From Lytechinus pictus (taxonomy: Eukaryota), in assembly GCF_037042905.1 (NCBI RefSeq), contig NC_087250.1, forward strand, positions 6,946,001 through 7,010,000: a DNA stretch of 64,000 bases. Reading direction: 5' to 3'. Shown here one piece after another: positions 16,950-43,781 of this stretch. A program made the translations under genes and the position numbers. The notes under the pieces are model-generated. The model saw only the letters and a program-made list of their open reading frames with translations, was not told the origin of the DNA and ran no database searches. The stretch's first letter is position 1, and each line of letters opens with the position of its first letter.

Positions 16950-17185
16950 GGATGGGGGATCGGGTGTCCGGACACTTTATATTTTTGAAGCCTTCTTTTT
17001 TGTCATTGGATTACACTACAAATACGAAATCAATAGTTTTAATCATCTTCTATTTTGTTCTCTATAATATTTCCTGACATTTTGTACTAAAAATTGATAA
17101 AACTTTCCTTGTAAATTTTTCCAAATGACTTTCTAAAATTGATCGTCCGGACACACAACCTGTCCGGACACACAACAACTGGGTA
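16950..17185 (-). mobile_element. 236-bp TA-targeting insertion with asymmetric ends (copy 2)
   Basis: GAG-TA|GGATGGGGG...CAACTGGGTA|TA-CGAC; empty site GAGTACGAC in the paralogous element at ~20774-20782. Confidence 0.85.
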
Positions 17186-19360: not shown

Positions 19361-19714
19361 GCAATATAGGTATAAATTCTAAAAAAAAATTGGCCATGAT
19401 TTGTTGGATTTAAACGTTGTCTTAAAGCAATTAAGACAACTCACAACTGTCTTAAAGTTAGGGCAAAATTCTTAGCCATGTAGAATTTATGAAATACAGA
19501 CTCTGCATATTTAAGAAAAGTTACTTAGCCATTCATCCTAAATCTGTCTTAGTCGCGCAAAAATTCTTAGCCAAATTCTTAGACAAAATTCTTAACCAAT
19601 TCTTTATGGAATACGCGTTTTGGCTAAGAATTTTGTCTTAGACAGAAAACTAAGACAAAATGCTTAGATTTTTTACTTAAGCATGCTTATCTCGTTTATG
19701 GAATACGGGCCCTG

Positions 19715-19859
19715 GGGCCCGTTGGAGAAAGAGTTGCGTTTAAACGCAAGCCAAAAAATCAATCGCAAGTCTCAAATGCGCGTTGTTGATTGGTTGAAAA
19801 TCAAGTTGCGCATGATTTTTAGAGTTGCGATTGATTGCAACTCTTTCTGCAACAGGCCC
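19715..19859. mobile_element. 145-bp Harbinger-type MITE
   Basis: CTG|GGGCCCGTTGGAGAAAGAGTTGC ... GCAACTCTTTCTGCAACAGGCCC|CTG. Confidence 0.8.
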
Positions 19860-19862
19860 CTG

Positions 19863-22800
19863 GGCCCGTATTCCATAAACGAGATAAGCTTTTTGCTTAA
19901 GTCTTAGCAATTTATCTTAGCATTTTGCTTGTCTAAGAAATCTTCCCTAACGATATTCTATAAACTTTAAGACATTTGTCTCAAGTCAGACGATATGGCT
20001 AAGCCAAAGTCTCAAAGTCAAATTCTATGACCTTCTAAACTGCTGCAGGGGTGACTGCAACAAAATAGCAAAAATGTCATTGAAGTTGTTTTTTCTTAAC
20101 AAGTTTGATTTTATTGAAACTAATTACAACTATTGTAGTAAAAGAAGAGCATTCATCACCCATATATGGTAAGAATTCTTTATTCAGATTATTCTATATT
20201 TTGTTAATTACCAAAACATTTCAATCCCAAACCGAGTGACTTGCACAGTTTTTTATGTATCAGTCCCATTCATTACTTTTCATGTATTGTTTGTCAAAAT
20301 CTAAATGGGATAGGGTAGATTCCTCTCGACATCTTTATTCTACTTCAGTTGAAGTAGACCTAGGGTCTAAGGGAAAACATTTGTAACTTTTGAGACTAGT
20401 CTTGGGTTTAACATTAGGCCTAGATCTAGCCTAGGCCCAAGATCTACAACTAATATCCGTCTGTTTGGAGGAGAATTGAACATTGTTTTTACTTTTTACT
20501 TTCCTGAAGGCTGAAGCAAAACGTAACTTTGTTAGTCTAGTGCCGTAGTGGAGCAACTGAGACTGAAGCTACATACTAGGCCTAGATCTAACGATAGACC
20601 TATATTAGTATTGGTCTAGGCCTAGAACATGCAGGACTTAGCCTGGCTTAGCCTTAAGACAGGGATAGATCTATCTAGATTTACATGTAGGTCTAGAATA
20701 GATCTGACTTAGGCCTAGACCAAAAGCTTCAGTCTCCGACTGTATTTTGGTTGTTCCGCTATTTTAGTATTACGAGTACGACACTAAACAGTCTAACGTT
20801 ACGTTGGCCTAGTCTCACCAATGTGATATGACAGTAAATGTCAGAAACTTTTATATAAATCCCCAGAAACGATGGTTATTCCTGTCAACAGTGCTAGATA
20901 TATCGCTATGCATTGCTTGCCAACTATGCCTAAAGTTAGATCTAGTCCTAGTAGTAGTCTAGACATCTATCTAGATCTAGGCCTACTCCTGCTTTAGGTC
21001 CATCTGTTTGTTTTGGAGTTTTTATTTTATACATTTTGAGGACTTGTTTAGATCTAGGTTTCCAGGACTAGAAAACAGGCCTAAACCTAGACCAACACTG
21101 GCAACAGCTCAGTCTCGACTAGGGCCTAGATTTATATAAGAATTTAGATCTAGGGCCTAGGCGGCCTAGCCTGTGCTTTCTTCTATTCATTCTAGATTTT
21201 ATTTCTAGCCTATCCGGTAGCCCTAACGTTAGGACTGGCTGATCTAGTCTACTGTTTGATCTAGAAATCTCTAACCTAGGCCTAGATCTAGACTAAATGA
21301 CTTACTCACTTAGACTGAAAGTTAGACCCTATCTAGATCTAGAACTATACCAATCTAGGTGTACATAGGGTCATAGTAATAGGTGTAGATCTAGAGACTT
21401 GTAGACTCTATCTCAATGTAGATTCTAGATCTAAAAATAGTAAATGTAGGCTAGATCTAGTCTAGTTCTACTCATCTAACGTTAGGCCTGAGAAAGGAAG
21501 TAGGCTAGGGATCTAGCATTGGGTTATTTCTAGGACTAAAGAATCTTGATCTAGGCTTAGATCTAAACTAGGGGCTGTAGTTCGAAATCTTGAGGTCTAG
21601 CCCCCCCCCCCCCAAAAAAAAAAAAAAAAAAAAACTAGAACTAAGCCCTCAGCTACATGTAGTTCTCTATGTAGCCAAACAAAAGTTAGCATTGACCATT
21701 GTCTTAATCTTTTTTGGCGTATACATGTAGTTATCATACAAACACATATTTTGATGAATGAGAAAATGTGTCTTGCAGATTATTTTAGCTCAAAACCTAC
21801 ATTTCATGGACATATAGGCCAATGTCATAAAATGAAGAAGTAGTTCGATACACATCATGCTGTTTACACATTTATTGATCTGATATGCTGTTACCATGGC
21901 AACAAATTTTCAAATATATGTCTTGCAGATCTACACCTCAAAATCAATGTGTGAGCCAACTTTTATAAGAATTGGTAAAACTAATAAAGGGATTCAAACC
22001 ACAAGATTTTCACCTAATTTCTTTATATAATATGTTGTTACCATAGCAACACGAATTCTGATACAGGCAAAAGTATATCTTAGACATCTTCAACTCAAGA
22101 CTATTGTGTGCGCCAACATTTTAGGAGAATTGACCAGTTGAAAACTGATAAAGTAATTCAAATTACAAGATTTTCATCTAGTTTTTGTTATTTTATTTGT
22201 TGCCATGGCAACACAATTTTTTTATAAAGTATATTTTATATATACTTTGCACATCTTCACATCAAGACTAACGTTTGTGCCACATTTCATGAGAATTGAT
22301 TAAAAACTGAAGAAGTCGTTGGAACTGCAAGATTTTTACATAATTTTTGCCCTAATATACCGTTACCTTGGCAACACAATTTCCGACACATGCGAAAATG
22401 TGTCTTGCACATCTTTACCTCAAGACTTATGTCTGTGGCAAACATCATGAGAAGTGGTTGAAATATTGTAAACTTGTTAAAACCACAAATTTTTCACCTA
22501 ATTTTCGTTATTTAATATGTTGTTACCATGGCAACGCAATTTTTGTATATAGGCATAAAATATGTTTTGCACATCTTCACATCAAGACTAATGTTTGTGC
22601 CACATTTCATGAGAATTGGTTAAAAACTGAGGAAGTAGTTGGAATAGCAAGATTTATACATAATTTTTGCCATAATATACTGTTACCATGGCAACACAAT
22701 TTCCGACACATGCAAAATTATGTCTTGCACATCTTTTCCTCAAATCCAATGTGTGAGCCAACTTTCATGAGAATTGGTAGAAAACCGATGAAGTAATTTA

Positions 22801-23302
22801 AATTTTAAATTTTGGCCATAATATACTGTTACCATGGCAACACAATTTCTGAAAAAGCAAAAAAAAAACTCTTACACCTCCTTACCTTAAGACCAATGTG
22901 TGTTCCAAATTTCATGAAAATTGGTTAAAAACTGAGGAAGTAGCTCGAAATGCAATATAGGTATGAATTCTAAAAAAAAATTGGCCATGATTTGTTGGAT
23001 TTAAACGTTGTCTTAAAGCAATTAAGACAACTCACCACTGTCTTAAAGTTAGGGCAAAATTCTTAGCCATGTAGAATTTATGAAATACAGACTCTGCATA
23101 TTTAAGAAAAGTTACTTAGCCATTCATCCTAAATCTGTCTTAGTCGCGCAAAAATTCTTAGCCAAATTCTTAGACAAAATTCTTAGCCACTTCTTTATGG
23201 AATACGCGTTTTGGCTAAGAATTTTGTCTTAGACAGAAAACTAAGACAAAATGCTTAGATTTTTGACTTAAGCATGCTTATCTCGTTTATGGAATACGGG
23301 CC
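19863..23302 (+). mobile_element. Non-autonomous PIF/Harbinger-type element, 3.44 kb (copy 2)
   Basis: Near-identical to 16032-19711 minus the 236-bp insertion; same TIRs; flanked by CTG and CAG. Confidence 0.85.
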
Positions 23303-23999
23303 CAGGTCATTGTTTATTTGTTTGTTCAGGAAGACAAACCAAAGATTTACAAAAATGGGATCTTCTGCCTTCTTGTTTGGCGCCAAGCGTTTAGATTGGA
23401 GAATGGTAATAATAACATGAAGTATGTTAAATGTAGCTAGGGCCCGCTGGTAGAGCAGTTTTATAACTGAAGTGGCTAACCTGGGTAAATAAAACGCCAT
23501 TATCATCTTGATTCTCAAACAGCCATCACTTTTTTATTCGTTGCCTGATTTCTTTTTTAAAGCTTGCAATCTCTAATTTTTCTCTGATATTTATCTCATG
23601 TTGCACCTCAATACCCGTTGAACGTTTTCAACGGGGTCCTCTTACAATCCCAATGGTCCACGAGGCCGAGGGTCCACGAGCCCGAGGGTTCACGAGGACG
23701 AGACCAAATTTTCTCATATTTTTGGTGTATTGCCATTAACTACAACTGATTCGTCAAATTGTGTAGGGTTTAATTTACATTGAAGAATAGGTAGGTTACA
23801 TGTAAGTCGGAAGTCTTCAATTGACATAGACGATTAACATATTGATAGAATGAAATAAAAGATCAGAAAACCGCGGACGTTAACCTTTTCAACCACTGGC
23901 GTAAATCCATGTTGATGGGTGGGGGGATGACATAAATATTTTGGTATTTTTTTGCAATCATGTTTTTAGATATGCAAGGAATTGTCATTGATATGTCCA

Positions 24000-25112
24000 C
24001 AGTGGCGACCGTGGGTCACGGCATTGGCGGGGGGGGGCACCAGCAAAATTTTTGAATGACATAATAGAGACATTTTAAGGACAATGTCATTAAACGGATA
24101 TGTATCTCAGTGATCAAATAATGCGAGCGCGAAGCGCGAGCTGAAATTTTGTTATATTCACACCTAAAAAGGGACATTATAATCAAATTTGTGTAATCAT
24201 GATAGGTACCTGTCTCGCTTAACAATGCGAGCGCGAAGCGCGAGCTGAAAACTTAGATAATTCAGACCTGAAGTGGGGCATTCTAAGGTTTCTTTGTAGG
24301 AATTAACTAGGACCATACGTATTTCATTAACCAAATGATGCGAGCGCGAAGCGCGAGCTGAAAAATTTTGATGTTCAGATGAGAAGAAGGGGCATTTTAA
24401 GGACTGATTTTAGGAATTCATGAAGAGCAGACATATCTCACCAATCCACTAATGCGAACGTAATCACGGACAGGAAATGTTTCATATATACGAAGACCTT
24501 AACATGGGGCAATCACTTTTGAATCATGAAAAAGAAGCATATGTCACTACATAAAACAATGATAACTCAAGTGCTAGGAAATATATTTGGTTTATATTGA
24601 CTTGAAAACGGGATGTTTTAGTACAACAGGATTATGCAGGGGCCATGGAACGGGGGGGGGGGGCTGGGGGGGCTTCAGCCCCCCACTTTTTTCCAAAACC
24701 GTGTACAAAAACGCAAAAATGACCATACGATTGTGATTTTTTGCATGGTCAGCCCCCCCCCCCCCACTTTTGGCTCAGCCCCCCCCCCCACTTTGAAAAC
24801 CGTTCCGCGGCCCCTGTTATATATCTCGTTAAACAGACAATGCGAGCACCAGGAACAATGAAGACGTAGGCCCTGGGCAAATTATGTTTCATAAAGTTAT
24901 GATAAAAATGTTTCTTATGTAATGTAATTTAACATAGTTATAATATAACATTCTAATGAATAATATTTTCTTCTTTCCCACTACGTTTCTCTTCCGTTCT
25001 CCCTCTTTTCTCCTTTTCCCCCTTTCCCCTTTCCCCCCTTTCCCCGTTTTTTTTTGGTCAGCCGATAGGGGGGGGGGATGTGCCGCCCATGTCCCCCGTA
25101 GTTACGCCACTG
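24000..25112 (+). mobile_element. Inner hAT element of copy A
   Basis: CAGTGGCG...CGCCACTG with 8-bp TSD TATGTCCA (23992-23999, 25113-25120); repeated GCGAGCGCGAAGCGCGAGC motifs. Confidence 0.8.
24637..24816. mobile_element. CAGGGGCC-terminus MITE with apparent 5-bp TSD
   Basis: TTATG|CAGGGGCC...GGCCCCTG|TTATA; absent from copy B (~42785-42795). Confidence 0.7.
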
Positions 25113-26899
25113 TATGTCCATATGGCAAATACCCCTCCAATATTATTATCTTTTTTACCCCATGATGGTTTAATGGTTTTATTAGAGATTACATTCAACA
25201 AATTTTTGACATTCCATCTTAATCCCTTCCCAAAGACCCCAACATTGATGAATTGGAAGAAACGGGGTTTCTCTTCAATGCTATAATAAGGACATAAGTA
25301 TTTTGTTTGGAAATGGTGAACTGGCTCTTTAATTGCATTTTATGATTCAATAATATTATTTTATTTGTTAAGCGGTATTTTTGGAAGAATTTTCACCAAT
25401 AAAACAATTATCTCTTGTGATTTTTTTTTTCATTTTTTTCGTAAAAAGTGGGGGGATGTTTGTACAGGCCATCCCCCCTCCTCGAAAAGTGGGGGGATAT
25501 ATCCCCCCATCCCCCCCCCCCGGGATTTACGCTGTACACACACGCGACCACAGGTTTTACAAACCCACCCTGAACAAGTCTTATCCTTTGGTCAAATCTA
25601 TACCCTATTCAAGTAATTTCGCGTGCATTTTTGACAATTTTGCCTCCTAAACAAGTGTAACTCTTAAAGCAGATACGAACCAATGGCGCGCTCGAGTCCT
25701 CAACTACTCATACCTGGCCAGTTTCTTGACCCATATATAACGCCAGTGTATTCTAGTAATATATACCCACTTGAATGATAACATGCTAATTAATTTCTCA
25801 ATACATAATTTATACCGCAATAATTGTGTTACTAAGTAGCAAAACAATTACTTTTCCTCTCAAAACATTTTTATTTTTCTATACAAATACAATTATAGGT
25901 CAATCTATTCTCTGTAGCACTGGCGTAAATCCCGGGGGGGATGGGGGGATATATCCCCCCACTTTTCGAGGAGGGGGGGATGGCCTGTACAAACATCCCC
26001 CCCCCACTTTTTACGAAAGAAATAAAAAAAAAATCACAAGAGATAATTGTTTTATTGGTGAAAATTCTTCCTAAAATACCGCTTAACAAATAAAACAATA
26101 TTATTGAATCATAAAATGCAAATAAAGAGCCAGTTCACCATTTCCAAACGAAATACTTATGTCCTTATTATAACATTGAAGAGAAATCCCCGTTTCTTCC
26201 AATTCATCAATGTTGGGGTCTTTGGGAAGGGATTAAGATGGAATGTCAATTTTTTTTCAATGTAATCTCTAATAAAACAATTAAACCATCATGGGGTAAA
26301 AAGATAATAATATTGGAGGGGTATTTGCCATATGGACATACAGTGGCGTAACTACGGGGGGGGGGGGGGCATGGGGGGCACATGCTCCCCCCCCCCCCCC
26401 CCCCCCCCCATCGGCTGACCAAAACAAAAACGGGGAAATGGGGAAAAATAGAAAAGAGGGAGAAAGGAAGAGAAACGTAGTGGGAAAGAAGAAAATATTA
26501 TTCATTATAATTATAATTATGTTACACACAGAAAAATTAGGGTACATTTGGGGTACATTTCGAGACATTATCACCCACGCGATCATATTGTACCCTTGGG
26601 GTACTGGTTTTTAGCCAAGAACAGCGGATTCTTGCGAGGGGTATAATTTTGAACCTTTCTTGTGTTAAGATTAGTGTGGTTTCCAGACCCATACATAAGC
26701 TTTATATTACATAAATATTAGATAATTCAATTCCCAATGTATGATTAACGCATTAAACATGAATATATATTATTTACTATGCGATTTAGCCCTAAGATAG
26801 TGTCATTCTTGGTAGAATATTTAATACTGTTCAAATTAAAATAAGAATCATCCTTAAATGGGTTTTAAAGATAAGACCATGCCGTCAACTTTGCCGCCA

Positions 26900-27010
26900 A
26901 CTTTGAGCCGGCGTGCAAGACGCTCGTGCAAGCTGTGAACGGTGGACGCTCGTGCAAGCTGTGAACGGTGGTGCAATTTCTCTGGAAATCATTGTCAAAT
27001 CCGTCTAAAA
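26900..27010 (+). other. Predicted leader exon of EnSpm transcripts; supplies the A of the ORF2 ATG
   Basis: Consensus donor AAAA|GTGAGT at 27011; CpG-containing region near the left TIR; 5' boundary is a guess. Confidence 0.6.
26919..26970 (+). repeat. Perfect 26-bp tandem duplication in the presumed promoter/leader of the EnSpm element
   Basis: GACGCTCGTGCAAGCTGTGAACGGTG x2. Confidence 0.9.
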
Positions 27011-27470
27011 GTGAGTATTTTCAGCCGCTTAGCATCTATTCTCTATGTTATCATAATTTTGCCAGAATATTGATCTTTTACCTGCAAATTTTTCCAGTTA
27101 TGAGTAGCGAAACTGCCACGAACGGACGCTGGTTAGAAATTCTGACCAGTCCCACTCCTTCATTTTCGTTGTGGTGCGACTAACGTGAATCGAGACATAA
27201 AAATTACTAATTACCACTTTGACACTTATTTTTCAACTTCTTTAGTTAATTTCCTTCTGGCCAGAGCAGAGAAACTAAAAAATTGAGGAATTTAACAATG
27301 AGAGTGTGCATTTAACGTGGAATCTAAATAAATATGCTACATTATAACTTACATAGCCATATGGCATATGTGTAACTGCAACTGTTAGTCATTGGATGAT
27401 ACATTTTCATGATTTTATAATTTTCGTTCATCAGTTTGTTTATCATTTGACCAGAACGGTAATTATTGTC

Positions 27471-29945
27471 ATGTTTCCTCAACCTTTGCCATTTCGATGC
27501 CCATTGTGTGGTATCCATTTACGGTCTCTGCAAAGACTGCTAAGTCATGTAGGCGCAGTTCATCAGCATGAGCCCAACCTTTATATCACATGCAATATAC
27601 AGGGTTGCGTACAAGGGTTTAGCAAATTCCATTCCTATCGATCACATATGTATAGAAAGCATCGATTATTCCTTGATCTTGAAGAGAACCCTAACCACTT
27701 AGCCCAGGAAAATGATGAACAGCATTCTGGTGATGAACTTGAAAATTATGGTCACGTGCTTGATGATGTGCAACTGGGAGAAAGAGATCGTAGTTCAAAC
27801 AGGGAAATGCTACAAAAGCATTTGGCAATGTTTGCTCTTAAAACTAGGGAGAAATATAATCTCCCTAGAGTAGTTGTACAAGATATCATGAGTAGTGTAC
27901 GTTCTCTCGTGTCATTTGTAAATGAGTCCCATACAAGTACCACAGATCACGAAGGTCCTTATAATTTTCCTGCATGTCGAGAACCAGAAGATGAACTCAA
28001 TGATCTTACATGTGATACAATCTTTGAGTCGATTGGGTCCGATTTTCTTCTTGAGAAATATTGCAAGGCCAATTTAGGTTTGATAGAATCTCACGAAAAG
28101 ATCTTAGGTGAAGAATTGGTAAATGGTCGGCCGGTCAAACATACAATGCAGTATGTTCCCATTCTTGAGGTGTTAAAACAATACCTTGGCCAGGAAGATG
28201 TATGGGCTAGTATGAATGCCAACTTCATGGAGGTTTCTGATCCTGATATATTAGCAGGATATAAAGCTGGGGCTCATTTCCAGAGTAGTGAATTTTACTC
28301 TGCCCATCCACATGCATTGAGGATTGTGTTGTACACTGACGAGTTCGAAATTGTCAACCCATTGGGGGCAAAACGTGGTCAGCAAAAGTTGCTTGCAGTG
28401 TACTACATGGTGGAAAATATTGAGGCTCAATATCGATCAACCTTGTCAAATATCCATCTTGCTCTCCTTGTTAGGAACAAAATCGCTCAAAAATATGGAT
28501 ATGAAGGGATACTTAAACCCCTCATCACTGACCTAAAGATTCTGGAAAAAGATGGCATCTTCATAAATGTGAATGGCACAACGCATCACCGCCTTGGTTC
28601 TGTCATTGCAATGTGTGGTGACAATCTCTCGGCTCATGCTGTTGGTGGGTTTTCCAGTTGTTTCAATTCTGGGCGTATTTGTAGGCACTGTATGGCATTG
28701 AAACCTGAGATCTGCACAAAATTTGAAGAAAGTCAGTTTGTTCTCCGAACCACAGAAGTACATGCATATCATTTAAATGCCATTAAAGCAGACAGTCACA
28801 ATTGTTCTGTTTATGGTGTTTATCGTCCATGTGTTCTCGATGAATTGCGATATTTTGATGTTACAAAGTGTTTACCCCCTGATCCCATGCATGATCTGCT
28901 TGAGGGAGTTGTCCATCATGTGATAAGAGTTGTCCTCAAAGAGTTATTGACACAACGATGTTTGAATTTTTCCAGTAGTAAACTGCAGAAGAAAATGGAA
29001 GAATTTAAATATGGTAGAAATGATGCAATGAGCAAGCCCGTTGTAATTCAGGCCAAAAATGTGAAGCACAATGAGCCCAATATAGTTGGTTCTGCGTCAC
29101 AGAAACTATGCTTGTTCAGGCTATTGCCTTTTTTGATAGGTGAATTTGTGCCTGAAGATGCAGATATATGGGAGCTTTATCTTTCTTGCAGAGAGATTGT
29201 GGATATTTGCCTCTCACCCATTGTAAAGAAATCATGGCTTCCATATCTGCAGCAAGAGGTAATCGATCTAAGTGAATTGTTTGCAAAATATTCACAAGAT
29301 CAATATCCTTGCAAACTTCATTATTTGATCCATTACCACAGACATCTTTCAGACTTTGGACCTCTTAGAAACTTTTGGTGTATGAGATTTGAATCTAAGC
29401 ACCAATATTTCAAGAATCTATCGTCTGTGGTCCGTAACTTTAGAAATGTTGCCTTAACCCTGACAACACGTCATCAGTCTCTCCAATGTTGGCAAATGAA
29501 TGCAGGGTCATTTTTCCAGCAGCAAGAGAGTGCTCTTAGTAATTGCAGACAGATTTCAGTGCTTAAACTGCCTCGTGCTCTCCAAAGAGTTTTGACTGAA
29601 ATGAGTCTTGTCCACGAAGGCAATTTGTGGAAGACAAATTCTGTGCAAGTAAATTCCATGACTTATCAAGATGATGATGTTATCATCATAGATATAAAGC
29701 ATGAAGAAATTCCTGTCTTTGGGAAGGTTAAGCATATTTTACAATGTGACACACATTGGTATATATGCATCAAGGAGTTTGATACGTGCAGATTTAACAG
29801 GCATCTTCATGCATATGAAATTGGTGTAACAGAAAGATGGAGTGTGATGAAGGCAGGACCAAGAAGGGATTTCCAGAGTCTTAGTCTTTATGAGATAGAT
29901 GACAAGTGCATGGTATCGTTGAAACATAGACCTTTGTTGTTGTAA
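27471..29945 (+). CDS. EnSpm/CACTA-type DDE transposase with two N-terminal C2H2 zinc fingers (824 aa from the second Met; ORF open from 27396)
   Basis: CPLC..H...H and CNIQGC..H...H fingers; YTDEFEIVNPLG (D1), MCGDNL (D2), CRHC, DPMHDLLEG, KLHYLIH, WCMRFESKH (E) are CMC signature motifs; no stops or frameshifts. Confidence 0.92.
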   Translation: MFPQPLPFRCPLCGIHLRSLQRLLSHVGAVHQHEPNLYITCNIQGCVQGFSKFHSYRSHMYRKHRLFLDLEENPNHLAQENDEQHSGDELENYGHVLDDVQLGERDRSSNREMLQKHLAMFALKTREKYNLPRVVVQDIMSSVRSLVSFVNESHTSTTDHEGPYNFPACREPEDELNDLTCDTIFESIGSDFLLEKYCKANLGLIESHEKILGEELVNGRPVKHTMQYVPILEVLKQYLGQEDVWASMNANFMEVSDPDILAGYKAGAHFQSSEFYSAHPHALRIVLYTDEFEIVNPLGAKRGQQKLLAVYYMVENIEAQYRSTLSNIHLALLVRNKIAQKYGYEGILKPLITDLKILEKDGIFINVNGTTHHRLGSVIAMCGDNLSAHAVGGFSSCFNSGRICRHCMALKPEICTKFEESQFVLRTTEVHAYHLNAIKADSHNCSVYGVYRPCVLDELRYFDVTKCLPPDPMHDLLEGVVHHVIRVVLKELLTQRCLNFSSSKLQKKMEEFKYGRNDAMSKPVVIQAKNVKHNEPNIVGSASQKLCLFRLLPFLIGEFVPEDADIWELYLSCREIVDICLSPIVKKSWLPYLQQEVIDLSELFAKYSQDQYPCKLHYLIHYHRHLSDFGPLRNFWCMRFESKHQYFKNLSSVVRNFRNVALTLTTRHQSLQCWQMNAGSFFQQQESALSNCRQISVLKLPRALQRVLTEMSLVHEGNLWKTNSVQVNSMTYQDDDVIIIDIKHEEIPVFGKVKHILQCDTHWYICIKEFDTCRFNRHLHAYEIGVTERWSVMKAGPRRDFQSLSLYEIDDKCMVSLKHRPLLL

Positions 29946-31013
29946 GGAAAATTGAATCTTGCCCTCTATTAACCTATTTTCAGCATTTCATGCAATTATT
30001 GCTATTTTTGTGGTGTGTTCAGAAAACAGTAGAGGTCCTGTGCTGTCCAGTTTCTTTTTAGGTTTCTAGTAGTTTTTTTTTTCTCTCCTTCTTTATATAC
30101 TTTTTCGTTTATCTCATACATGTGTCATTTGTCTCTGACAAAGGTTCTGCTAGGACTGACTGCTCAGGCTCTTTTACTTCGTGTTTTTCCAATTAACATA
30201 TATTGTATTTTGTGGTTCTATAATGGCTACAATTTAAATGCTCATCTCACCTAGCAAAGAAGATTTTTTTTTAATAGTCTAGATACTGAGTCTGAATAAG
30301 TATCTAACATATTTTCCAATGCGTTCAAGTAGTTTTGCTACTCTCTAAATGGTAAATTAACAATTGAATGAATAAATTAATGTATATATAGAGAGAGATG
30401 TAGGTTGATTATACAGCCACTATCATGGCAATTTTGGGGTGAGAGTGCATCGACCCAGCTTGTCAGTTGGTCATCTCTAAGCCGGCTAAAAGGTATGTAT
30501 AATCCTCTCTGAATGTCAGTGTGATACGATTTTGATGTTGATAGTGTGAAATTCACAAATTTGTCATGAATAGTGGAGGTGTCGTGGTCTAGATGTGAAT
30601 TCCTGGGACTTTCTGGCAAGAAATTTTACTACATCTGCCACTTTCACCCAGGTGCTATTTGGGGACCAGAAAAAAACTTACCTGCACGGGCTTAAAGGCT
30701 CGCTCCGGCCAAGAAATATCTTGCTTTGATTAGAAGCAGAAAAATCATACGAATGGATTTTTTCTTCTGTCTCAAAGACGGGGGAAGGTGGGGGAAGGGG
30801 GAGTAGATAGAGGAAGTAGCATTTCATGAAATAACCCTTCTCATGGGATATTACATTCTATGGCAGATATTTCACAATCAACCATAGATACAATTCTTTT
30901 GCGTGGCAACAGAGATCACAATATTTCTGGTTATTTTCTCAAGTGGGCGAGACACAATATTGCTAATGCCTTGTTATTCTAATAATATTATAATAATAAT
31001 ATTGTTATTATTA

Positions 31014-31057
<44 letters not shown>

Positions 31058-31231
31058 GTTAGCAGTGTTATTTATTGATAATTACTGTCATTGTTCATGG
31101 CTACTCTATATAATAAGTGCAGTACAACAAACAATAATACTTCTCAGATATTTTGCGCACTGTTTTGCTTCAACAATACACCCAATCAAGACAATCAATG
31201 ACATATCGTGCATATTTCTTTCTTCCTTTAG

Positions 31232-31517
31232 TGTTGCAGTATCATGTTTCTTGTGGGACTTCAAAGAAGCAGGTTATCATTGAAGAAAATGCCACAATTG
31301 ATGACTTGAGGGTGAAGATTGCCTCCAAATTTAACATGAGGAGACCCGACAGCCTGCAGGTCTTCAATAAAGACTTTGGTGACTGGCTGGACCTGGAAGA
31401 AGAGGATGAACTTCCTCCAACAATGTCAAGGGTGAAGGTTTTGGATGACCCAAACGAGGACACAGAAGACAAAGCGAGTTCTGATATCCATGAAGACAGG
31501 GAGGTCCCATCAAGACA
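31232..31517 (+). CDS. EnSpm ORF2 (SAMD3-like accessory protein) exon 2, PB1/ubiquitin-like N-terminus
   Basis: Pyrimidine tract + AG at 31230-31231; LQYHVSCGTSKKQVII...LQVFNKDFGDWLDL; donor CA|GTAGGT, phase 2. Confidence 0.78.
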
Positions 31518-31814
31518 GTAGGTTATTTTTTGTCTGTTCTGTATGCATATTATGTTGACGTTATCCGCATATATTGTTCATCTTTTCCATTTTAATGCGT
31601 GAGGCAAACGCCTGGAGTAGTAAATGTCATAGACTTATATTTTTCCTCATGTTTCTTTTAATCGGATTGTAATTTATTCACTCAATGATTTATTTCTATT
31701 ATTGTAAATCAATTAAGCATTTGGCTGATTTTTATATACACGAGATGTTGTTATTGCCATTAATATTATTAGTATTATTATCATTATAATTGTTATCATC
31801 ATCTTTTTGCGCAG

Positions 31815-32012
31815 GACTTCAGTCGCTTCCACATGTCCTCAGACGCTGACATCTGAAGGAGCAAGGAGCAGCTTTTTTGTAAATTTTAAAGTGCCTGAAA
31901 TGCCCCACGATGTGCAAAAACTCTTAAATGACAACAACAAGGCTGTTCTGGAAAGGAAGTGGAGGAGAAAAATTGTGTCGCATCTGTATGACAACATGGT
32001 TCAAGTGGCAGT
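31815..32012 (+). CDS. EnSpm ORF2 exon 3
   Basis: TTTTTGCGCAG| acceptor, GT|GTAAGT donor; FKVPEMPHDV...RRKIVSHLYDNM; phases match neighbours. Confidence 0.8.
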
Positions 32013-32606
32013 GTAAGTTTGCGTTAAAATTTGTCTTTCTCCTCAGTGAGTTTTCATTATTAGGACATATATTGGCTCAATCAGCGCCCGAACCCTACAA
32101 TAATCTATAATAAACCATATAAAGCTTATTATAACCCTACAATATTAAGTCTGTATTGAACAAAATATATATTGCTTGGTTTGTGTACATATTCAAACAT
32201 TTGTATCATTATTATACATGTATACGGGCAATTCCGTAAACTGATCAACCTTTTGTACGTCCGACCTCACTTTTCTGCTATTTTACTTTGCTATTTCACT
32301 ATTTGGGCCATCATCATGAAAGACCATTACACCGAGTTTGCAAATCAGATATGAATGATGGAAAGTTAATTTATGAAGGCCCTGTATGCAGGGGATCAGC
32401 TGTACATAATTTATAGATTTACCAATTTTTTTGTATTGCTTTGATGTACCCTCAAAAATTTAATCGAATCTTGTGCATGTACATTATTATGTTTGGTTCC
32501 TCTCCTCTCTCCCTCTTTCTCTCTCTTTCTTTCTATCTGTGTGTGTGTTTCTGTCTTCTCTTCTTTCTTTCTCTCTCTCTCTCCCTCTCTCTCTCTTTAA
32601 CTACAG

Positions 32607-32700
32607 GTACCCTCATTCATGGGAGTACAATGCTGTGTGCAGTGCACTGATTAACAAGCACCCGATTTTGAAGGATCGAACCATAAATGGTTCGGGATAT
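32607..32700 (+). CDS. EnSpm ORF2 exon 4
   Basis: (CT)n..CTACAG| acceptor, |GTAAGT donor; YPHSWEYNAVCSALINKHPILKDRTINGSGY. Confidence 0.82.
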
Positions 32701-33013
32701 GTAAGTTTTACATGCGCGCATGTGTGTGAGAATAATGATAATGATTCTTGAGATGATAACATATAATAAGTAGTAAATTGTAGTGAACAAATATGCAATA
32801 TTGAAACATTTTTTGTTCTTTTTTTTTCCTTACACATCTTGTGTTTCCTTACACATCTTGTGTTTGCGAGTCTGATACCACTTCAAAATGGAGGAAAAAT
32901 ACCATGAAAAAGATCGATTTTGCACAGATTTGACTGGAACTTGATTGTGTATTATGTGTCAGAATATATAACTTGTTAAATACCTTTTCAATCATTCCAC
33001 TTCATTACGTTAA

Positions 33014-33522
33014 AGCCCAAGTATAGTTTTGGTAAGGATTAAGAAATGTGAATTTTTGGGATATCTACCATGACATATAGTTTTTATACACATTTTAAGA
33101 CCATAGCATTTTTTCTACGAGCTAATTCTTTTGGAAATTTGAATTTGACCGTTAAATCGTATTTAGCGCCCTCTATTGGTTGTAACAATAATTTGCTTCT
33201 TATCGGGCATATACAAAGTTATTTCCAAGACTTGATTAAAGCATGATAAAAAGGAATACACAAAGAATAAATTCTGAAATTTTCATCCAATTCTATGCAT
33301 GAGAAGTTGTCCTTTATCAAGAAAGAAAATATTGAATTCGCATCGGGGGACACGACGCTGAAATATTTTGCACATTTTAGGTTATAACTTTTCCAAAACT
33401 TGTTCATTTTTTGCACAATCTTTTGTACAACATGTTCATGATATCATGTTTCATTTTATACCGATTTGAAGTCAAAATTTGGTGATAAAAAATTTCGCTT
33501 TTACCAAAACTGTACTTGGCCT
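33014..33522. mobile_element. Kolobok-type MITE in an ORF2 intron
   Basis: TTAA|AGCCCAAGTATAGTTTTGGTAA ... TTACCAAAACTGTACTTGGCCT|TTAA. Confidence 0.75.
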
Positions 33523-33526
33523 TTAA

Positions 33527-34281
33527 CCCTAAATAGGCTGGGCTATTTTGAGAGTTCTCAGAGCCGGGGGGGGGGGGGCCTCCCAGGCCCCCCCCCCCCC
33601 CCCCTTCTGTTCTCGGCCGTCGATCGCGCTATCGCCGCGAAAATTTGCACGCGAGTAGAGCATCATGTAAACTACAAATTACCATCGTCAGATTTTCGAA
33701 AAAATACACCGTTTATTTTTAATTAATTAATTATGCTAATTTATGCATAAAAAGGCATTTTGTTCTCTAAATCACAAAATACTAGTGATAGCAAACTAAT
33801 TTTTGGTCTAAGTATTCCTGGTATCATATCTAACAATTCCACATAAAAAAAATTGCACTGACAAATTGAATTTCTTTTTTTTTTTTTTTTTTTCAATTTC
33901 TTGTGTATTTCATTGTTTTTTCGACCTTTTTTTTCTATTGTTTTTTGGGCACAATTTATTACAAATATTTTTTCAAGTATAATTATGCTAATATGAATTG
34001 ATTTCTGCCACTGAAAGCAAAAACATGAATTATTATGTGAATTAATTGAAAAAACACAATTTGCATTGACTTTGTACACAAAAACACGTTTTGGAGCAGT
34101 TTTGAGGCTGACATGCGTGTATAAAATGTTACGTAATTTCGTAACGGTAAGTCCGATTATCATGAAAACGGTTTTAAAAGTTGCGGGAAACTTGAAAGAA
34201 AAAAGTCAGCGAGCCGCGTTATCAGAAATTTTCGTGCAGCGAAACGATCGCGAAATCCGTCGGCCCCCGGCCTAGTTAGGG
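33527..34281. mobile_element. piggyBac-type MITE in an ORF2 intron
   Basis: TTAA|CCCTAAATAGGCTGGG ... CCCGGCCTAGTTAGGG|TTAA. Confidence 0.8.
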
Positions 34282-34369
34282 TTAATGCAGGGTTAATTAT
34301 TAAAATAACCAGGTTTTTTTTTTTAATATGCTGTTATGCTTCATGTCTCACATTATTTTTGCATTGTAG

Positions 34370-34549
34370 GATACAATAAAAGAGTCGCTGAGGACAAAGT
34401 TTAAACACGAGAGAGGGATTCGAACACCATCAACTGATGTAGCCAGGAGGAGGGAGTTGTATGGCCGCAATGGCCCCAGAAAGCGTGCTGAGGACAACGT
34501 GGAAAAGGCCCCATCTCCTGTTAAAAGGAAGAAGCGGGATAGCATTGAG
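34370..34549 (+). CDS. EnSpm ORF2 exon 5 (basic, NLS-like)
   Basis: TTGTAG| acceptor, GAG|GTAAAG donor; DTIKESLRTKFKHER...PVKRKKRDSIE; 180 bp, phase 0/0. Confidence 0.8.
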
Positions 34550-34782
34550 GTAAAGCAACCGTATACTTTTTTAGAGTTATCTGTAGCATCTATCTGGCAT
34601 TTCAATGTTATGACTTATTGTGAAAGAAGCCATCTATTAGATTGTTGGTTGTAATACATGTGTCGATTTATATATAGAAACAAATGAAATTTCAATCTTG
34701 TGTGCCGATGATTTTTCATGTATTCAAGAACTCATGTGACGTTTTGTTTAAAATTAATGTGCTCTTTTTTTTTTTTGTTTAG

Positions 34783-34983
34783 ACCTCACATGGGGGAGAA
34801 GACGAAGCCAGCATCCAAAGACACATCGCGTCATTAAAAGATCTGGCATCCAAGAGGGGCGCAGACCCGTCAATTATTCAGGACAAAATGAAGCGGACGC
34901 GAAGTCATAGACTTTGTTTTATTCAAGCCAATGCTTTGCAGGATGTTCTGAATGAATATCCGATACTGAGGTTTGAAAAACAG
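34783..34983 (+). CDS. EnSpm ORF2 exon 6
   Basis: T-tract..TTTAG| acceptor, CAG|GTTAGT donor; GEDEASIQRHI...KMKRTRSHRL...VLNEYPIL; 201 bp. Confidence 0.82.
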
Positions 34984-35515
34984 GTTAGTACTAAATGTAT
35001 TTCTTTCTTTGATAACATTAAAACTACTACGTACACATCAATCTCTTCGCGCACCAAATCAGATCTTAACGCAACATTGATTATTATTTACTATTAAAAT
35101 TGTACATGTACAAAAAAATATTGAAACTGCAGAGTTATAAATATCGGCTCCTATTTTTCGGAATAAATGGATGAAAATGCAATAGATTATAGATACTGCA
35201 CATCTTCGACCAAGTTAACTACTTTATTCATGTGTGATGTTCGGTTTTCATTTAAGAAATATGGAGGATATTTTGATGAAACTTAATGAAAATTAATCAG
35301 CGCGGATTAATCAAATGAAATCCATGAATTTGATTGGATAAAAAGCATCGTCTCTTACTCTTTAATAAATATTAGTGTCGGAGAATGAGGCTTGTATTGT
35401 TGCTGCAACAAGCCTCATGAAATGCCCTCCAGGCGCTAGTTATAAGTGCGCTATTGATTACCTTCTATGAACATTGGCTCATTTTGTTTAATTTGTGTCC
35501 ATCCATTCTTTTTAG

Positions 35516-35696
35516 CTAATACGTGAGCTTCAAAATACGTATGGGGCAAAGGAAATAGCAGCCGCTATTGCCGAATCGGTTACAGCTAGTGGAGAAGTGA
35601 TTCTCCGAGAAGGATTGAAGGTGCCAGCAGCACAAGAAGTGATCGAGCAATATCAGGACAAAGTTGATGGTGCGACTACAGACAAGCAGAAGAAAG
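35516..35696 (+). CDS. EnSpm ORF2 exon 7
   Basis: TTTTTAG| acceptor, AAG|GTATTT donor; LIRELQNTYG...TTDKQKK; open frame, phase 0/1. Confidence 0.75.
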
Positions 35697-36083
35697 GTAT
35701 TTTGTGCCTCATACCTCCAATTTATTTTATGGTGTAGAGCAGGGGTTCTCAAACTACGGCCCGCGGGCCGGATCCGGCCCGCAGAGCTTCTCTATCCGGC
35801 CCGCGAGACTCTGCTGGGTTTTTTTAATCACTAAAGTCACGATATGAAACAAAGCTCAATATGATTACATTGTGTATCCATGTAGACCTAACCGTAATAA
35901 AAGTAATGGCAGTCAAATTAATTTGACATTTAAACAAAGTTTAGTGGAGTCTTTTCTGTCTGTTCGATCTACTTATTAGATGACCAGCGCTGTTCTCACC
36001 ATGTTTGGATCTACATACAGGTGTGAAAGTGCATTTTCCACAAGGAACATTTTAAAGAACTAACTCATACCGAAGTACCTTGA

Positions 36084-36232
36084 CAGGGGCCGCGGAACGG
36101 TTTTCAAAGTGGGGGGGGGGCGCTGGCCATGCAAAAAATCACAATCTTATGGTCATTTTTACGTTTATATAAATGGTTTTGGAAAAATGTGGGGGGCTGA
36201 AGCCCCCCCCCCCCCCGCTTCCGCGGCCCCTG
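36084..36232. mobile_element. CAGGGGCC-terminus MITE with 5-bp TSD, nested
   Basis: CTTGA|CAGGGGCCGCGGAA...TTCCGCGGCCCCTG|CTTGA; same family as 24637-24816. Confidence 0.78.
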
Positions 36233-36318
36233 CTTGACAAGTGAACATTTGCACCCGTGCCTTCGTCTGGTAATTACACCTTTTGTGCCAAGGTTCAAGC
36301 AACTTATTGCTGACAGAC

Positions 36319-36589
36319 CACTAGCGTACCTACGGGGGGGGGGGGGGCAGGTCGGCACTCTGCCCCCCCTGACGAGCCACAACCCATACAAAAGACATAT
36401 ACCTGCCCCCCCCTGACGAGCTTAAAAGACCTTTTTTGCCCCCCTGACGAGCTTGAAGACCTTTATTGCCCCCCCCCCCCCTGATGAGCTTGAAGACCTT
36501 TTTTTTCTTTTTTTTTTTTTTTTTTTGCTTGTCAAATTTTTTGGCGGCCGATTTTGCCCCCCCTGTGGAAAATCCTAGGTACGCCACTG
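36319..36589. mobile_element. hAT MITE, nested
   Basis: CACTAGCGTACCTA...TAGGTACGCCACTG; 8-bp TSD TGACAGAC; internal GCCCCCCCTGACGAG repeats. Confidence 0.82.
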
Positions 36590-37429
36590 TGACAGACTGT
36601 CACTTTTCCCATATTGAAAGTGACTAGAAGACTGACATCATTGTTAGAGTCTACAACAGACGTACTCTATTATTCATTCTACTTTGACTGCAAAAATATT
36701 GATACTTCAAGACATAATCTGTCTTCCCAATACCAGTTATGTATAGGTAAAATCTAGATTCCTTCTAACAAAGTGCTGCAATTTTGTTATCATTAATATT
36801 GACTCTCGCTGTATTTTGAAATCTTTTCTAATTTTGCCTGCGTTCTGTATGAAACTGTTATAAATTTGTTGGAATAAAAGCTCCCAAAATAAGGGCCAGA
36901 TTATAGAGCATCTAGGACCCCGACCTCAAGGGTCTTTGCGCTTCGCGCACATTTTTGTCTAAGTATCCACTTCAGCCTGGCCCTTTTAGGTTTACTTGGA
37001 GTCTCATCTGGCCCTTCAAAGAAAAAGTTTGAGAACCCCTGGTGTAGAGGATAGTACCAAAAGCTATGGAATTATTTGCGATATTTACATTTATTTCGGC
37101 TTACATATAAAAAGGAATTGGTACTGCTAAAGTCACTGTCGTCCATGCCTTCAAAATCAGTTAATTGCATGAGGAGGAACATAACTATCCCACATTAGTT
37201 GTCATAGTCTTTGTTTATTATTCTTATCATAATTTATTATGGTGCTCAATTTCCCTGTCATCACCCTTTCAGAGAAGAGAAGAAAAAATGGACGTGTTTC
37301 CTTGACAATTAACATGGATATTTCGTTATCTTTCCTTCATGATTATGATCTAGAAGAAATAGCTTCCAAAAGCGTAAAACTGAAATACAATGTATTTACA
37401 TGTATCTATTTTGTTTGGTTTTGTTTTAG

Positions 37430-37506
37430 ATTTACTGGTGGCATTGTCATGCTTGCTGTTTCCTTTGATATTTGGGGAAAAGGACTCCATGTACACTATA
37501 AACAAG
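37430..37506 (+). CDS. EnSpm ORF2 exon 8
   Basis: TTTTAG| acceptor, AAG|GTAACA donor; (D)LLVALSCLLFPLIFGEKDSMYTINK; phase 1/0 bridges exons 7 and 9. Confidence 0.72.
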
Positions 37507-37973
37507 GTAACATTCAGATTCCGCATTTAGTATCTACTTTCCTTGGGATTGATTAAATTTTGCATTTGTCGGCTTTATCTAATTGTCATTCCAGGTCATT
37601 CCAGGCTATCATTTTTTTATGTTAACAATTCTAATTTAAGATAGACACCAATTGCAGGGACTGCAGAACCGGGGGCGGGGGGAGGGGGGGTGGGTGCTCG
37701 GGGCTGCAGCCACCACACTTTTTAAAAATTGCGTGCAAGCCTATGGCAATGTGTAAAAATCGTTATCCACAGGCCCCGCACTCTCAGCCCCCCCCCCCCC
37801 CCCACTCTTCAAAAACGTTCCATGGTGCCTGAAATGTACCATCAATAATACAGTTTAACCTCTTTATAAAGATCACTGATGCATGTATATTAAAGTAATG
37901 TTTTTGGTCAGAGTTCTTTGCATTGATTTGTTTTCCCTCCAAGGGAATAATGAATATCGAGAATCTTTTTTAA

Positions 37974-38717
37974 CCCTATTTTAACTGGGCTTTTTGAGAC
38001 CAAGTTTATACTTCAGATCTCGGCCGTGGATCGCGCAATCGCCGCAAAATTTTGCACACGGATAGAGCAAAGTGTAAACTACAAGACTGTATGGATTGAT
38101 TTTCCGAAAATTCCTAATTTCTATTTTTAAATAATTAATTATGCAAATTTATGCATGAAATCACACTTTCTGCTCTATTTCCCTCAATAAAGCACCTATA
38201 AGGCTAATTTTTGGTGTGAATATTCTTTATAATATCCCTCATGACACAACTTGAAAAAAATTTGGTATGACAATTTATTTCTTATGTTTTTTATTGATTT
38301 ATGAATTTCTTATGTATTTCTTTGTTTTTTAGACCTTGTGTTTTCTATTGTTTTTTCTATGAAATTTATTGCAGGACATTTTTGAAGCATTTTTGTGCTG
38401 AAATAAATTAGTTTCAGCCCATCAAACAAAAAATAACTACATCTTTATGGATTCTGACTGAAATCACAATTTACATTGACTTTGCACACAAAATCACGTT
38501 TTTGAGCCATTTTCGGTCTGACATGCATGTACAAAAAGTGGTGCGGCAACATAACCACATACCCGATTTTTGCGAAAACAGTCTTAAAAGTTGCGCAAGA
38601 CGTTAAAGAAAAAAGTCAGCGAGTCTCGTGGTGAAAAAATTTTGCGCGGCTGAGTGATCGCGAAATTTGTCGAGGGGGGGGTCAAATTGACCCCCCCCCT
38701 CCCCAGTTGGAATAGGG
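37974..38717. mobile_element. piggyBac-type MITE in an ORF2 intron (related to 33527-34281)
   Basis: TTAA|CCCTATTTTAACTGGG ... CCCAGTTGGAATAGGG|TTAA. Confidence 0.8.
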
Positions 38718-38775
38718 TTAAAGATTTATATGTTTTTATATTTCCGATTGGCTTTCTCTTTCTCAATTTTGTCAG

Positions 38776-39048
38776 GAACCCCAGAGCCCTACTCCTACCC
38801 TAGTGATATCAGGGAACCCCTTTGAATGTCGTGATTTAGCCATATTCATGGACGGGATAGAAGTTTGTCGAGCATCAGATCTCACATCCGGGTTTGTTGC
38901 AACATTCTCAAGTTTTTATGTGTTTGGGGTCCAGTACCCACAACGTGGAAAGAGGACCCTACAGCTATACCAGAAATTTTTTGCAGGACTGGATGATGGA
39001 AGTCCCCTACCACCCAGAGTCCAGCGATTTCTTAACAGCCTTGTTTAG
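38776..39048 (+). CDS. EnSpm ORF2 last exon (SAMD3-like C-terminus)
   Basis: TTTTGTCAG| acceptor; PTPTLVISG...IFMDG...FSSFYVFGVQYP...TLQLYQKFFAGL; TAG stop; joined CDS = 1491 nt (496 aa). Confidence 0.82.
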   Translation, partial: EPQSPTPTLVISGNPFECRDLAIFMDGIEVCRASDLTSGFVATFSSFYVFGVQYPQRGKRTLQLYQKFFAGLDDGSPLPPRVQRFLNSLV

Positions 39049-39159
39049 ACTGATTTATTTCTGGTTGGAAATTCCGCCGTAAATTTCTATTATTTTGCCC
39101 TAAAATTAAAGACTGTTCTGTGTACATGAGAAGATTTACACTCTCTTGCTACATTTGCT

Positions 39160-42109: not shown

Positions 42110-42660
42110 TATTATTTGTACCAGCAAGGGAATGAAATTGTACCAACGGGGTGAAAAATTGCACCCCAAACATATAAAATTGAACCAAAAAGGGTATAAA
42201 ATCGTACCACAAAGGGTATGAAAATGTACCTAAGGGGTCTGAAATTTGAACCCTACATGGAGGACATTGTACCAAAAGGGTGTAAAATTGTACAAAAGGG
42301 GTATAAAATTATACCGTAAAGGGTATAACATTGTCTCAAAAAGGGTGCAAAATTGTACCACATGGGTAAAAACTTGTACCAAATGGGGTATAAAATTATA
42401 CCAAAGGGGTATTATATTGCACCGGAAATGAATGAAAAAGTGTATAAATTGTACGAAAAGGGTAAAGATTTCTACCTAAGGGGTATACAATTTTACCAAA
42501 AGGGGTACAAATTTGTACCCCAGGAGTACCCGGGGGTACAATATTGTACCCCATCATGGGGTACAAACTTGTACCCCAACTTTGGGGTACAACTTTGAAC
42601 CCTATAGGGTGCAGCCGGTGTTGCATTGGATTGTACCCCTAGGGGTACAAATTTGTACCC
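42110..42660. repeat. Right subterminal repeat region of the EnSpm element
   Basis: Dense direct and inverted GGG(G)TA(C/T)AAA / TTGTACC motifs matching the TIR core. Confidence 0.85.
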
Positions 42661-43781
42661 TAATTTCTCTGTGTGTATGTTACATTACATAAGAAATATT
42701 TTTATCATAACAACTTCATGAAACATAATTTGCCCAGGGCCTGCGTCTTCATAGTTCCTGGTGCTCGCATTGTCTGTTTAACGAGATATATAATCCTGTT
42801 GTACTAAAACATCCCGTTTTCAAGTCAATATAAACTAAATATATTTCCTAGCACTTTCTTTTACATGATTAAAAAGGTGATTGCCCAATGTTAAGGTCTT
42901 CGTATATATAAAAACATTTCCTTCCGTGATTACGTTCGCATTAGTGGATTGGTGAGATATGTCTGCTCTTCATGAATTCCTAAAATCAGTCCTTGAAATG
43001 TCCCTTCTTCTGATCTGAATATCAAAAATTTTCAGCTCGCGCTTCGCGCTCGCATCATTTGGTTAATGAAATACGTATGGTCCTAGTTAATTCCTACAAA
43101 GAAACCTTAGAATGCCCCACTTCAGGTCTTAATTATCTAAATTATCTAAATTTTCAGCTTGCGCTTCACGCTCGCAATATTTGATTAGTGAGATGCGTAT
43201 GATACTCATGATTGCAATGAGTACAAAAAGTGTTTCATGTGTTCAGATGTAATTCTAATAAAATCAGCAAGCGCTTGGCACTTGCATTAGATGACTATGG
43301 TGAGATATGCATACTCTTAATGGATTCCTAAAATATATTCCTTAAAATCTCGCTGTTTGGGGTCAAAATATACGAAAATTTCAGCTCGCGCTTCGCGCTC
43401 GCATTGTTTAGCGAGACAGGTACCCATCATGATTACACAAATTTGATTATAATGTCCCTTCGCGCTCGCATTATTTGATCAGTGAGATACATATCCGTTC
43501 AATGACATTGTCCTTAAAATGTCTCTATTAGGTCAGAATAACTAGCAACCGAGCGCGCTTCGCGCGCTCACTCAGTGATTCGAAAATTTTGCTGGTGCCC
43601 CCACAATGCCGTGACCCACGGTATGCCACTGTGGACATATCAATTACAATTCATTGCATATCTAAAAACATGATAACAAAAAAAAAGCCAAAATATTTCA
43701 GTCATCCCCCCACCCCTCAACACGGATTTACGCCAGTGCTCTGTAGTATTAGTAGATATCTGAAAACGTATATTTTAAGAC

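Follow-up and report, generated by a model that had tools for sequence, protein, structure and literature searches.

In maize, Spm gives rise to two RNAs, an abundant tnpA RNA of 2.5 kb and a rare tnpD RNA of 5.8 kb, the latter composed of the intron-1 open reading frame (ORF) and the tnpA exons, according to the transcript descriptions in PMC2613891. The TnpD RNA carries two ORFs in tandem, and passages of PMC1636069 describe a similar arrangement for SmTRC1 of Schistosoma. Divided start codons are known from other settings: in the pflareA reporter the ATG of green fluorescent protein (GFP) is split and its ORF opens only in one splice form (construct description in PMC3668367), and VAMP1 is a natural gene in which an intron divides the ATG (an example in the TOGA2 preprint, 10.64898/2026.06.30.735536). 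Here a locus of the sea urchin Lytechinus pictus is described in a 64,000-nucleotide stretch of contig NC_087250.1 (the window, in which all positions are counted). A DNA transposon filed under the EnSpm/CACTA superfamily contains an intronless transposase ORF and, behind it, an accessory gene, ORF2. An expression plan like that of En/Spm, in which an observed long RNA is accompanied by a short RNA whose splice would create the accessory AUG, is the preferred reading, with a probability of roughly 0.6.

The proposed split start codon and the genes around it

The leader exon ends in A27010 within 27001-27016, which reads CCGTCTAAAA/GTGAGT (a slash marks a splice site). The acceptor region 31223-31245 reads TTCCTTTAG/TGTTGCAGTATCATG, with the AG at 31230-31231 and the exon running from 31232. 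Joining A27010 to T31232 gives ATG TTG CAG TAT CAT, in frame with the open stretch 31138-31521. The original prediction, made from the letters of this DNA, had pointed to A27010/GTGAGT, to TTTAG/TG at 31232 and to the in-frame ATG formed on joining them, and all of these features are present. A script that joined 27010 conceptually to eight ORF2 exons produced 1491 nucleotides (nt), and the translation is the protein of 496 amino acids (aa) termed P0002, letter for letter. RNA data consist of the assembled contigs of run X1 and the raw RNA runs X7-X9. The features that make up the locus are as follows.

26981..27010, + strand: 3' end of the leader exon; the proposed ATG takes its A from A27010, which ends the exon at donor AAA/GTGAGT, and X1 RNA runs through this donor
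27011..31231, + strand: proposed intron 1 of the accessory gene, 4221 nt, which encloses the transposase gene
27471..29945, + strand: transposase ORF, intronless, 824 aa (P0001), covered over its whole length by X1 record 2
30371..30376, + strand: AATAAA, which the assembled RNA passes, X1 record 2 continuing colinearly as far as 30490
30487..30498, + strand: second donor AAG/GTATGT with exon end 30492, joined to 31232 in X1 record 2, where the junction is G/TG
31198..31200, + strand: in-frame ATG inside the intron; it lies 34 nt upstream of the acceptor, the frame stays open up to there, and it starts the 507-aa P0005
31210..31231, + strand: acceptor TTTAG/, the one that X1 record 2 uses, with its polypyrimidine tract (share of pyrimidines 0.84)
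31232..31517, + strand: ORF2 exon 1; its TG would complete the ATG, and it encodes the predicted ubiquitin-like/PB1-like N-terminal domain
31815..32012, + strand: ORF2 exon 2; the ~200 letters at the end of X1 record 2 would fit its length
32607..32700, + strand: ORF2 exon 3; joint 32700/34370, GT..AG, in X1 record 4
34370..34549, + strand: ORF2 exon 4, from the conceptual splice and an X1 contig
34783..34983, + strand: ORF2 exon 5, from the same two sources
35516..35696, + strand: ORF2 exon 6, likewise from conceptual splice and X1 contig
37430..37506, + strand: ORF2 exon 7, conceptual splice and X1 contig
38776..39048, + strand: ORF2 exon 8 with the stop TAG at 39046-39048, conceptual splice and X1 contig

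There are 279 GTs in 26523-31224, 73 of them preceded by A, and the donor at 27010 scores best of the 73 on a rough donor matrix. An order-of-magnitude estimate puts the chance of a strong donor ending in A, an exon starting with TG and the right phase coinciding at perhaps less than 1 in 100. The idea that the donor regions CCGTCTAAAA and CCGGCTAAAA arose from one another by duplication was considered and rejected; their 10-nt likeness is about what chance gives in 4 kb (estimate ~0.1).

The transposase ORF lies wholly inside the proposed intron (27471-29945 within 27011-31231), as had been claimed, and 824 codons are open over this span; its first in-frame ATG is at 27396, upstream of the start that the original prediction had assigned. 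The AATAAA at 30371 and the proximal acceptor candidates also predicted, TCATCAG/27435 and GACCAG/27455, exist as letters, and this AATAAA is the sole AATAAA or ATTAAA in 29946-31231. The statement that no in-frame Met precedes the folded domain is correct inside exon 1, where the in-frame ATGs are 31336 and 31423 only, and fails upstream of it, where ATG 31198 is in frame with no stop between.

P0001 itself matches Pfam only at PF18759 (Plavaka), with 17.7 bits and below the 26.3 cut-off. It has 79 relatives at E<=1e-5, for example in fish, ticks and mosquitoes, with a best E of 1e-177. Among these 79, PF02992 (tnp2/Transposase_21) was found in five, PF18759 in two and PF13960 in one, the carriers having E values from 1e-177 to 1e-65. 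P0001 is counted as a transposase of the tnp2/Transposase_21 kind because its relatives carry PF02992, and the element is filed under EnSpm/CACTA because the transposase relatives carry PF02992, PF18759 and PF13960.

RNA, database models and the proposed expression plan

Run X1 is treated as RNA because its contigs are spliced at GT..AG and the intron bin 32760-33183 has a depth of 0.39. X1 record 2, a contig of 3999 nt at depth 13.5, is colinear with 26981-30490, continues with 31230-31517 and ends in ~200 further letters. It is unspliced at 27010 and spans both the transposase ORF and the AATAAA at 30371, and it identifies a long RNA in which the transposase ORF is followed by accessory exons. 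Record 2 joins at 31232 and not at the CAG at 31239, which the original prediction had named as a competing acceptor. A single choice of 3' splice site or poly(A) site had been envisaged as a binary switch between the two products. This view is too simple because the transposase RNA reads past the AATAAA and carries ORF2 exons; the only RNA seen to reach the acceptor is unspliced at 27010, passes the AATAAA and uses the donor at 30492. What varies is which of two donors is joined to the one acceptor, or whether the transposase segment is retained. X1 record 4, 1150 nt at depth 52, joins exons 3-8 at the exact model boundaries, and its depth compared with the 13.5 of the transposase contig suggests an extra ORF2 RNA species. 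X1 record 3 (31986-32499) continues past the end of exon 2 into intron 2, a sign that some of the RNA retains this intron.

Raw RNA of run X8 is present in 9 of the 9 bins of 26824-30639, on one strand only and at depths of 0.16-3.39; X7 covers 4 of these bins and X9 covers 1. X7 has a depth of 0.91 in the leader bin and 1.61 in the exon-1 bin and none in 29792-30639, a pattern compatible with a short RNA in reads too few to count.

A search with the exon-1 peptide led to one RefSeq cluster of Lytechinus pictus. The 496-aa form (MLQYHVSCG..) is listed as XP_063952467.1 and XP_063959689.1 at two loci (LOC129267283 isoform X2 and LOC129258791 isoform X1), and both are identical to the product of the 1491-nt gene model that had been predicted. 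A 507-aa form beginning MTYRAYFFLPLVLQYH is listed as XP_063952466.1 and XP_054753001.1 (P0005), a 461-aa form beginning MRRPDS at Met36 as XP_063959695.1 and XP_063968816.1, and further forms have 377 and 227 aa. The DNA of the window gives 496, 507 and 461 aa exactly, from the 27010 splice, ATG 31198 and ATG 31336, respectively. The 496-aa model starts with M, so its upstream exon must end in A.

In the proposed plan, one + strand transcription unit would give two products, organised as in maize En/Spm. The long, tnpD-like RNA is the one observed: it keeps the 824-aa transposase ORF, passes the AATAAA and joins donor 30492 to acceptor 31232 with the ORF2 exons behind. At that junction the ORF2 frame reads GUG, and the long RNA would have no AUG start codon for ORF2, there being no in-frame AUG upstream. 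A short, tnpA-like RNA would join the leader donor at 27010 to the same acceptor and remove the transposase; the leader A and the exon TG would then form the AUG of the 496-aa protein, with its putative N-terminal ubiquitin/PB1-like domain and helical 'SAMD3-like' core. The short RNA is inferred from the RefSeq 496-aa model, the strength of the donor and the N-terminus of the protein family. The one-base difference in register between the donors (..CTAAAA/GT versus ..CTAAAAG/GT) would decide whether ORF2 has an AUG, and the accessory protein would be made only from RNA that skipped the transposase. By analogy with TNPA, the protein may act at the GGTACA subterminal repeats. That this DNA transposon carries a natural start codon gated by splicing, with donors A/ at 27010 and AG/ at 30492 sharing one acceptor and an AUG arising only when the transposase is skipped and a GUG when it is kept, is a tentative conclusion held at a little under even odds.

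Several observations weigh against the En/Spm-like plan. The 27010/31232 junction was not seen among the 15 of 74 joints listed, at a raw depth of <=3.4, and X1 record 2 crosses 27010 and 31232 unbroken. The unbroken contig suggests that the alternative path at 27010/31232 is minor or absent in X1, an assembly whose contigs drop rare variants. The 30492/31232 junction is itself read from the alignment pieces of record 2, with 2 ambiguous letters, and is absent from the same 15 joints. Raw RNA depth on unique parts of the element is 0-3.4 in X7-X9, and no ORF2 joints were found in these runs at the 3-read listing threshold. The junction AUG would be preceded by up to 6 ATGs if transcription starts upstream of 26879. 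RefSeq lists the 507-aa and 461-aa forms beside the 496-aa form, and its proteins are computed models; the exon-1 protein searches (the RefSeq cluster, and a near search that gave only P0007) brought up no transcript-derived protein with either junction peptide. The termini of the element read TACACACAG and have the CAC core alone in common with CACTA/CACTG.

The junction GUG of the 30492-spliced RNA, with A at -3, could act as a near-cognate start and yield the full-length protein without the 27010 splice; it stands exactly at the start position of the family, in a frame that is open on its 5' side. Initiation at near-cognate codons is generally weak and many ATGs lie upstream, and this explanation is judged very improbable.

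N-terminus, fold and family of the accessory protein

Relatives of the ORF2 protein number 368 representatives at E<=1e-3. The N-termini of 23 relatives that reach the first residues were compared by eye: 17 start 1-10 residues before strand 1, one (P0007, a gene-caller start) begins inside strand 1 and 5 have longer extensions. P0133 (MATYHV) and P0219 (MNQYHV) have their first residue exactly where the Met formed by the junction would stand. Residues 2-35 are conserved in the relatives, for example with 57% identity over residues 6-84 in P0007.

An AlphaFold (AF2) model of the accessory protein was built from 27 sequences with a mean predicted local distance difference test (pLDDT) score of 86.3. 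The model has strands at residues 2-8 and 11-17, a helix at 23-34 and strands at 41-46, 51-55 and 67-71. The pLDDT is 93 for strand 1 and 93-95 over residues 1-40. VIA-align superimposes the talin F0F1, Dsk2 UBL and NBR1 PB1 domains from residue 1, with Z of 8.4-10.2 and root-mean-square deviations of 1.6-2.5 over 65-79 residues, and Foldseek relates the N-terminal domain to ubiquitin and the Cdc24p PB1 with TMt of 0.55-0.66. Residues 1-75 are confidently predicted to form a ubiquitin-like/PB1 beta-grasp (beta-beta-alpha-beta-beta-beta), and the fold begins at the junction, in agreement with the original prediction.

These results bear on the alternative starts. ORF2 could be expressed from a promoter of its own inside the 'intron' and begin at the contiguous ATG 31198 to give the 507-aa form, in which case the split codon would be unneeded. 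This ATG is in frame with A at -3 and no intervening stop, and P0005, under its two RefSeq accessions, equals the model from the window. The RNA argues otherwise: X1 depth is ~0 over 31064-31229, the bin mean of 8.19 coming fully from record 2 starting at 31230, and ATG 31198 lies outside the RNA of record 2 because that contig resumes at 31230. The 11 residues that this form adds come from translating the polypyrimidine tract and acceptor, and the extension occurs in 0 of the 23 relatives' N-termini. A start at ATG 31198 is therefore considered improbable.

A less remote explanation, still unlikely, is that only the 30492/31232 splice is real. ORF2 would then be a downstream cistron or be served by an internal promoter (29946-30492), any translation would begin at Met36 (ATG 31336) to give 461 aa with half of the N-terminal domain lost, and the 496-aa RefSeq form would be a computational extension. 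This would agree with 30492/31232 being the only junction into 31232 seen in RNA, with the two accessions of the 461-aa form, which the window reproduces exactly, and the 377-aa model, and with the lack of an in-frame ATG from the stop at 30378 up to 30492. A Met36 start would discard the conserved residues 2-35 and delete two strands and helix 1 of the confidently modeled beta-grasp. The long RNA has an 824-codon ORF ahead of ORF2, there are 10 ATGs in 29946-30494, and the ATG at 31244 is out of frame. The 496-aa N-terminus expected from the En/Spm-like plan fits the family because of where the relatives start, where the fold starts, what a Met36 start would lose and what the extra residues of the 507-aa form are.

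Pfam finds only a weak Crinkler-N match in P0002 (E 0.014) and no TNPA-like family. The helical core, residues 107-496, has no Foldseek match at E<=0.001, the VIA-align list being filled by the N-terminal domain, and a profile search against Protein Data Bank (PDB) sequences gave only weak matches to the BILBO1 N-terminal domain. The source name of the family is 'sterile alpha motif domain-containing protein 3-like' (SAMD3-like; sea cucumber, Diadema and Ciona). Among 36 relatives scanned, an N-terminal sterile alpha motif (SAM) was present in 2, Myb_DNA-bind_4 in 1 and BTB in 1, and the SAM stands where P0002 has its ubiquitin/PB1-like domain; CIDE-N occurs in 21% of the members of an arthropod cluster of relatives. 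These domain assignments hint that SAMD3-type host genes and the transposon gene share a ~360-aa core whose N-terminal modules have been swapped. A literature search returned no paper linking SAMD3 to transposons.

The host transposon and its comparison with known systems

The element spans 26523-42677 (16,155 bp) and is an intact copy, the sole one within the window. It is filed as an EnSpm/CACTA-superfamily DNA transposon of Lytechinus pictus with atypical termini. Its ends carry terminal inverted repeats (TIRs) and subterminal arrays.

26520..26522, unstranded: left target-site duplication TGT; the flank ...ATGT precedes TIR base 26523, and TGT appears again after 42677
26523..26545, + strand: left TIR, TACACACAGAAAAATTAGGGTAC, part of a 27-nt run with <=3 mismatches against the right end; X1 contig record 1 begins at 26523
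26541..26594, unstranded: 5' subterminal GGTACA/TGTACC motifs, 3 copies
26919..26970, + strand: 26-nt perfect tandem duplication in the leader region, just 5' of the 27010 donor, where the X1 contigs break
42117..42659, unstranded: 3' subterminal GGTACA/TGTACC array, 16 copies
42655..42677, - strand: right TIR, the inverted partner of the left TIR
42678..42680, unstranded: right target-site duplication TGT

The TIRs are 23 nt long with 1 mismatch (TACACACAGARAAATTAGGGTAC), and the window contains exactly two copies of their 21-nt core, in inverted orientation, against a chance expectation of 0. The 3-bp target-site duplication (TGT on both flanks) is present if the TIR begins at 26523, and a flanking TATGTTA repeat formally permits other boundaries. 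Outside these clusters GGTACA/TGTACC has 3 further copies within 26000-43000 and 7 in the remaining 47 kb, and the element thus has the subterminal arrays that are a feature of EnSpm/CACTA. X1 contig record 1 ends at 26918 and record 2 begins at 26981, leaving a gap over the 26-nt leader duplication, which could matter for the promoter or the leader.

The surroundings of the element are rich in other repeats. It sits inside an unrelated foldback element, 23894-43738, with termini CACTGGCG; the arms, ~1 kb each and inverted (23894-24908 and 42702-43738), are 90-99% complementary with termini CACTGGCGTAAATCC, the EnSpm element is inserted at the centre, and a second palindromic element at 24950-26511 is also inserted in the foldback element. 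The ORF2 introns hold repeat insertions with poly-G/poly-C tracts at 33530-34290, 35740-37040 and 37970-38710, two of which look like one family; read or contig depth over these insertions reaches 2557 and false 'joints' such as 33604/37788 arise there. Tandem arrays of 72-151-nt units occupy 39127-40733, 3' of the ORF2 stop, and are interrupted by an inverted-repeat insertion at 39544-40153. Farther away, 15600-19400 and 19800-22960 form a segmental tandem duplication of ~3.6-3.8 kb with 98-99% identity that contains ~158-nt repeat arrays, and 13066-13750 holds a long palindromic array made up of a 15-nt minisatellite (GGACATCTACCCCCC-like) and, immediately after it, the reverse complement.

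Confirmation of the short RNA would mean that a transposon ties accessory translation strictly to one splice choice via a single nucleotide, and the expression plan known from maize En/Spm would then be documented by RNA evidence in an echinoderm as well. The splice-gated start could be general to a widespread animal EnSpm family with a 'SAMD3-like' accessory gene. The locus is also instructive for annotation, since the three N-termini that databases give for one multi-copy gene (forms of 496, 507 and 461 aa) correspond to different 5' structures, and an intact, expressed transposon copy offers a handle on the origin and function of the large, uncharacterised animal SAMD3-like family.

SmTRC1 of Schistosoma mansoni is likewise an animal CACTA element with a Transposase_21 ORF, and the passages of PMC1636069 on its transcripts describe several alternatively spliced RNAs, the shorter ones without the transposase domain being more abundant, and one clone with two tandem ORFs. 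A split start codon is not reported in those passages, which give its accessory proteins as having no detectable relatives, whereas ORF2 has 368. The literature search found no report of a transposon whose start codon is split or made by splicing. The pflareA reporter follows the same logic as the one proposed here but is engineered, relies on exon skipping and not on alternative donors, and is not a mobile element; the L. pictus locus, if the proposal is true, would be its natural counterpart. VAMP1 differs in that its codon is divided AT/G and not A/TG, and, as presented in the preprint (10.64898/2026.06.30.735536), its split is constitutive and untied to a choice between two products.

Maize En/Spm is also among the closest known systems. 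Like it, the L. pictus element would be a single transcription unit in which intron 1 of the accessory gene encloses the transposase ORF. The two share arrays of subterminal repeats and a target duplication of 3 bp, and X1 record 2 corresponds to the 5.8-kb tnpD RNA in the account of PMC2613891. The En/Spm analogy drawn in the original prediction is upheld by the transcript descriptions in that paper and in PMC1636069. The L. pictus element differs in its host, an animal (echinoderm), in its termini, which read TACACACAG and not CACTA, in its intronless transposase, and in an accessory protein with no TNPA link detectable by Pfam or source names. The tnpA ATG of maize lies whole within exon 2, whereas the accessory start codon here would be assembled by splicing. 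Split start codons are already known as such, and the locus is not categorically new in that respect; it is a plausible, partly supported variant of En/Spm-style splicing.

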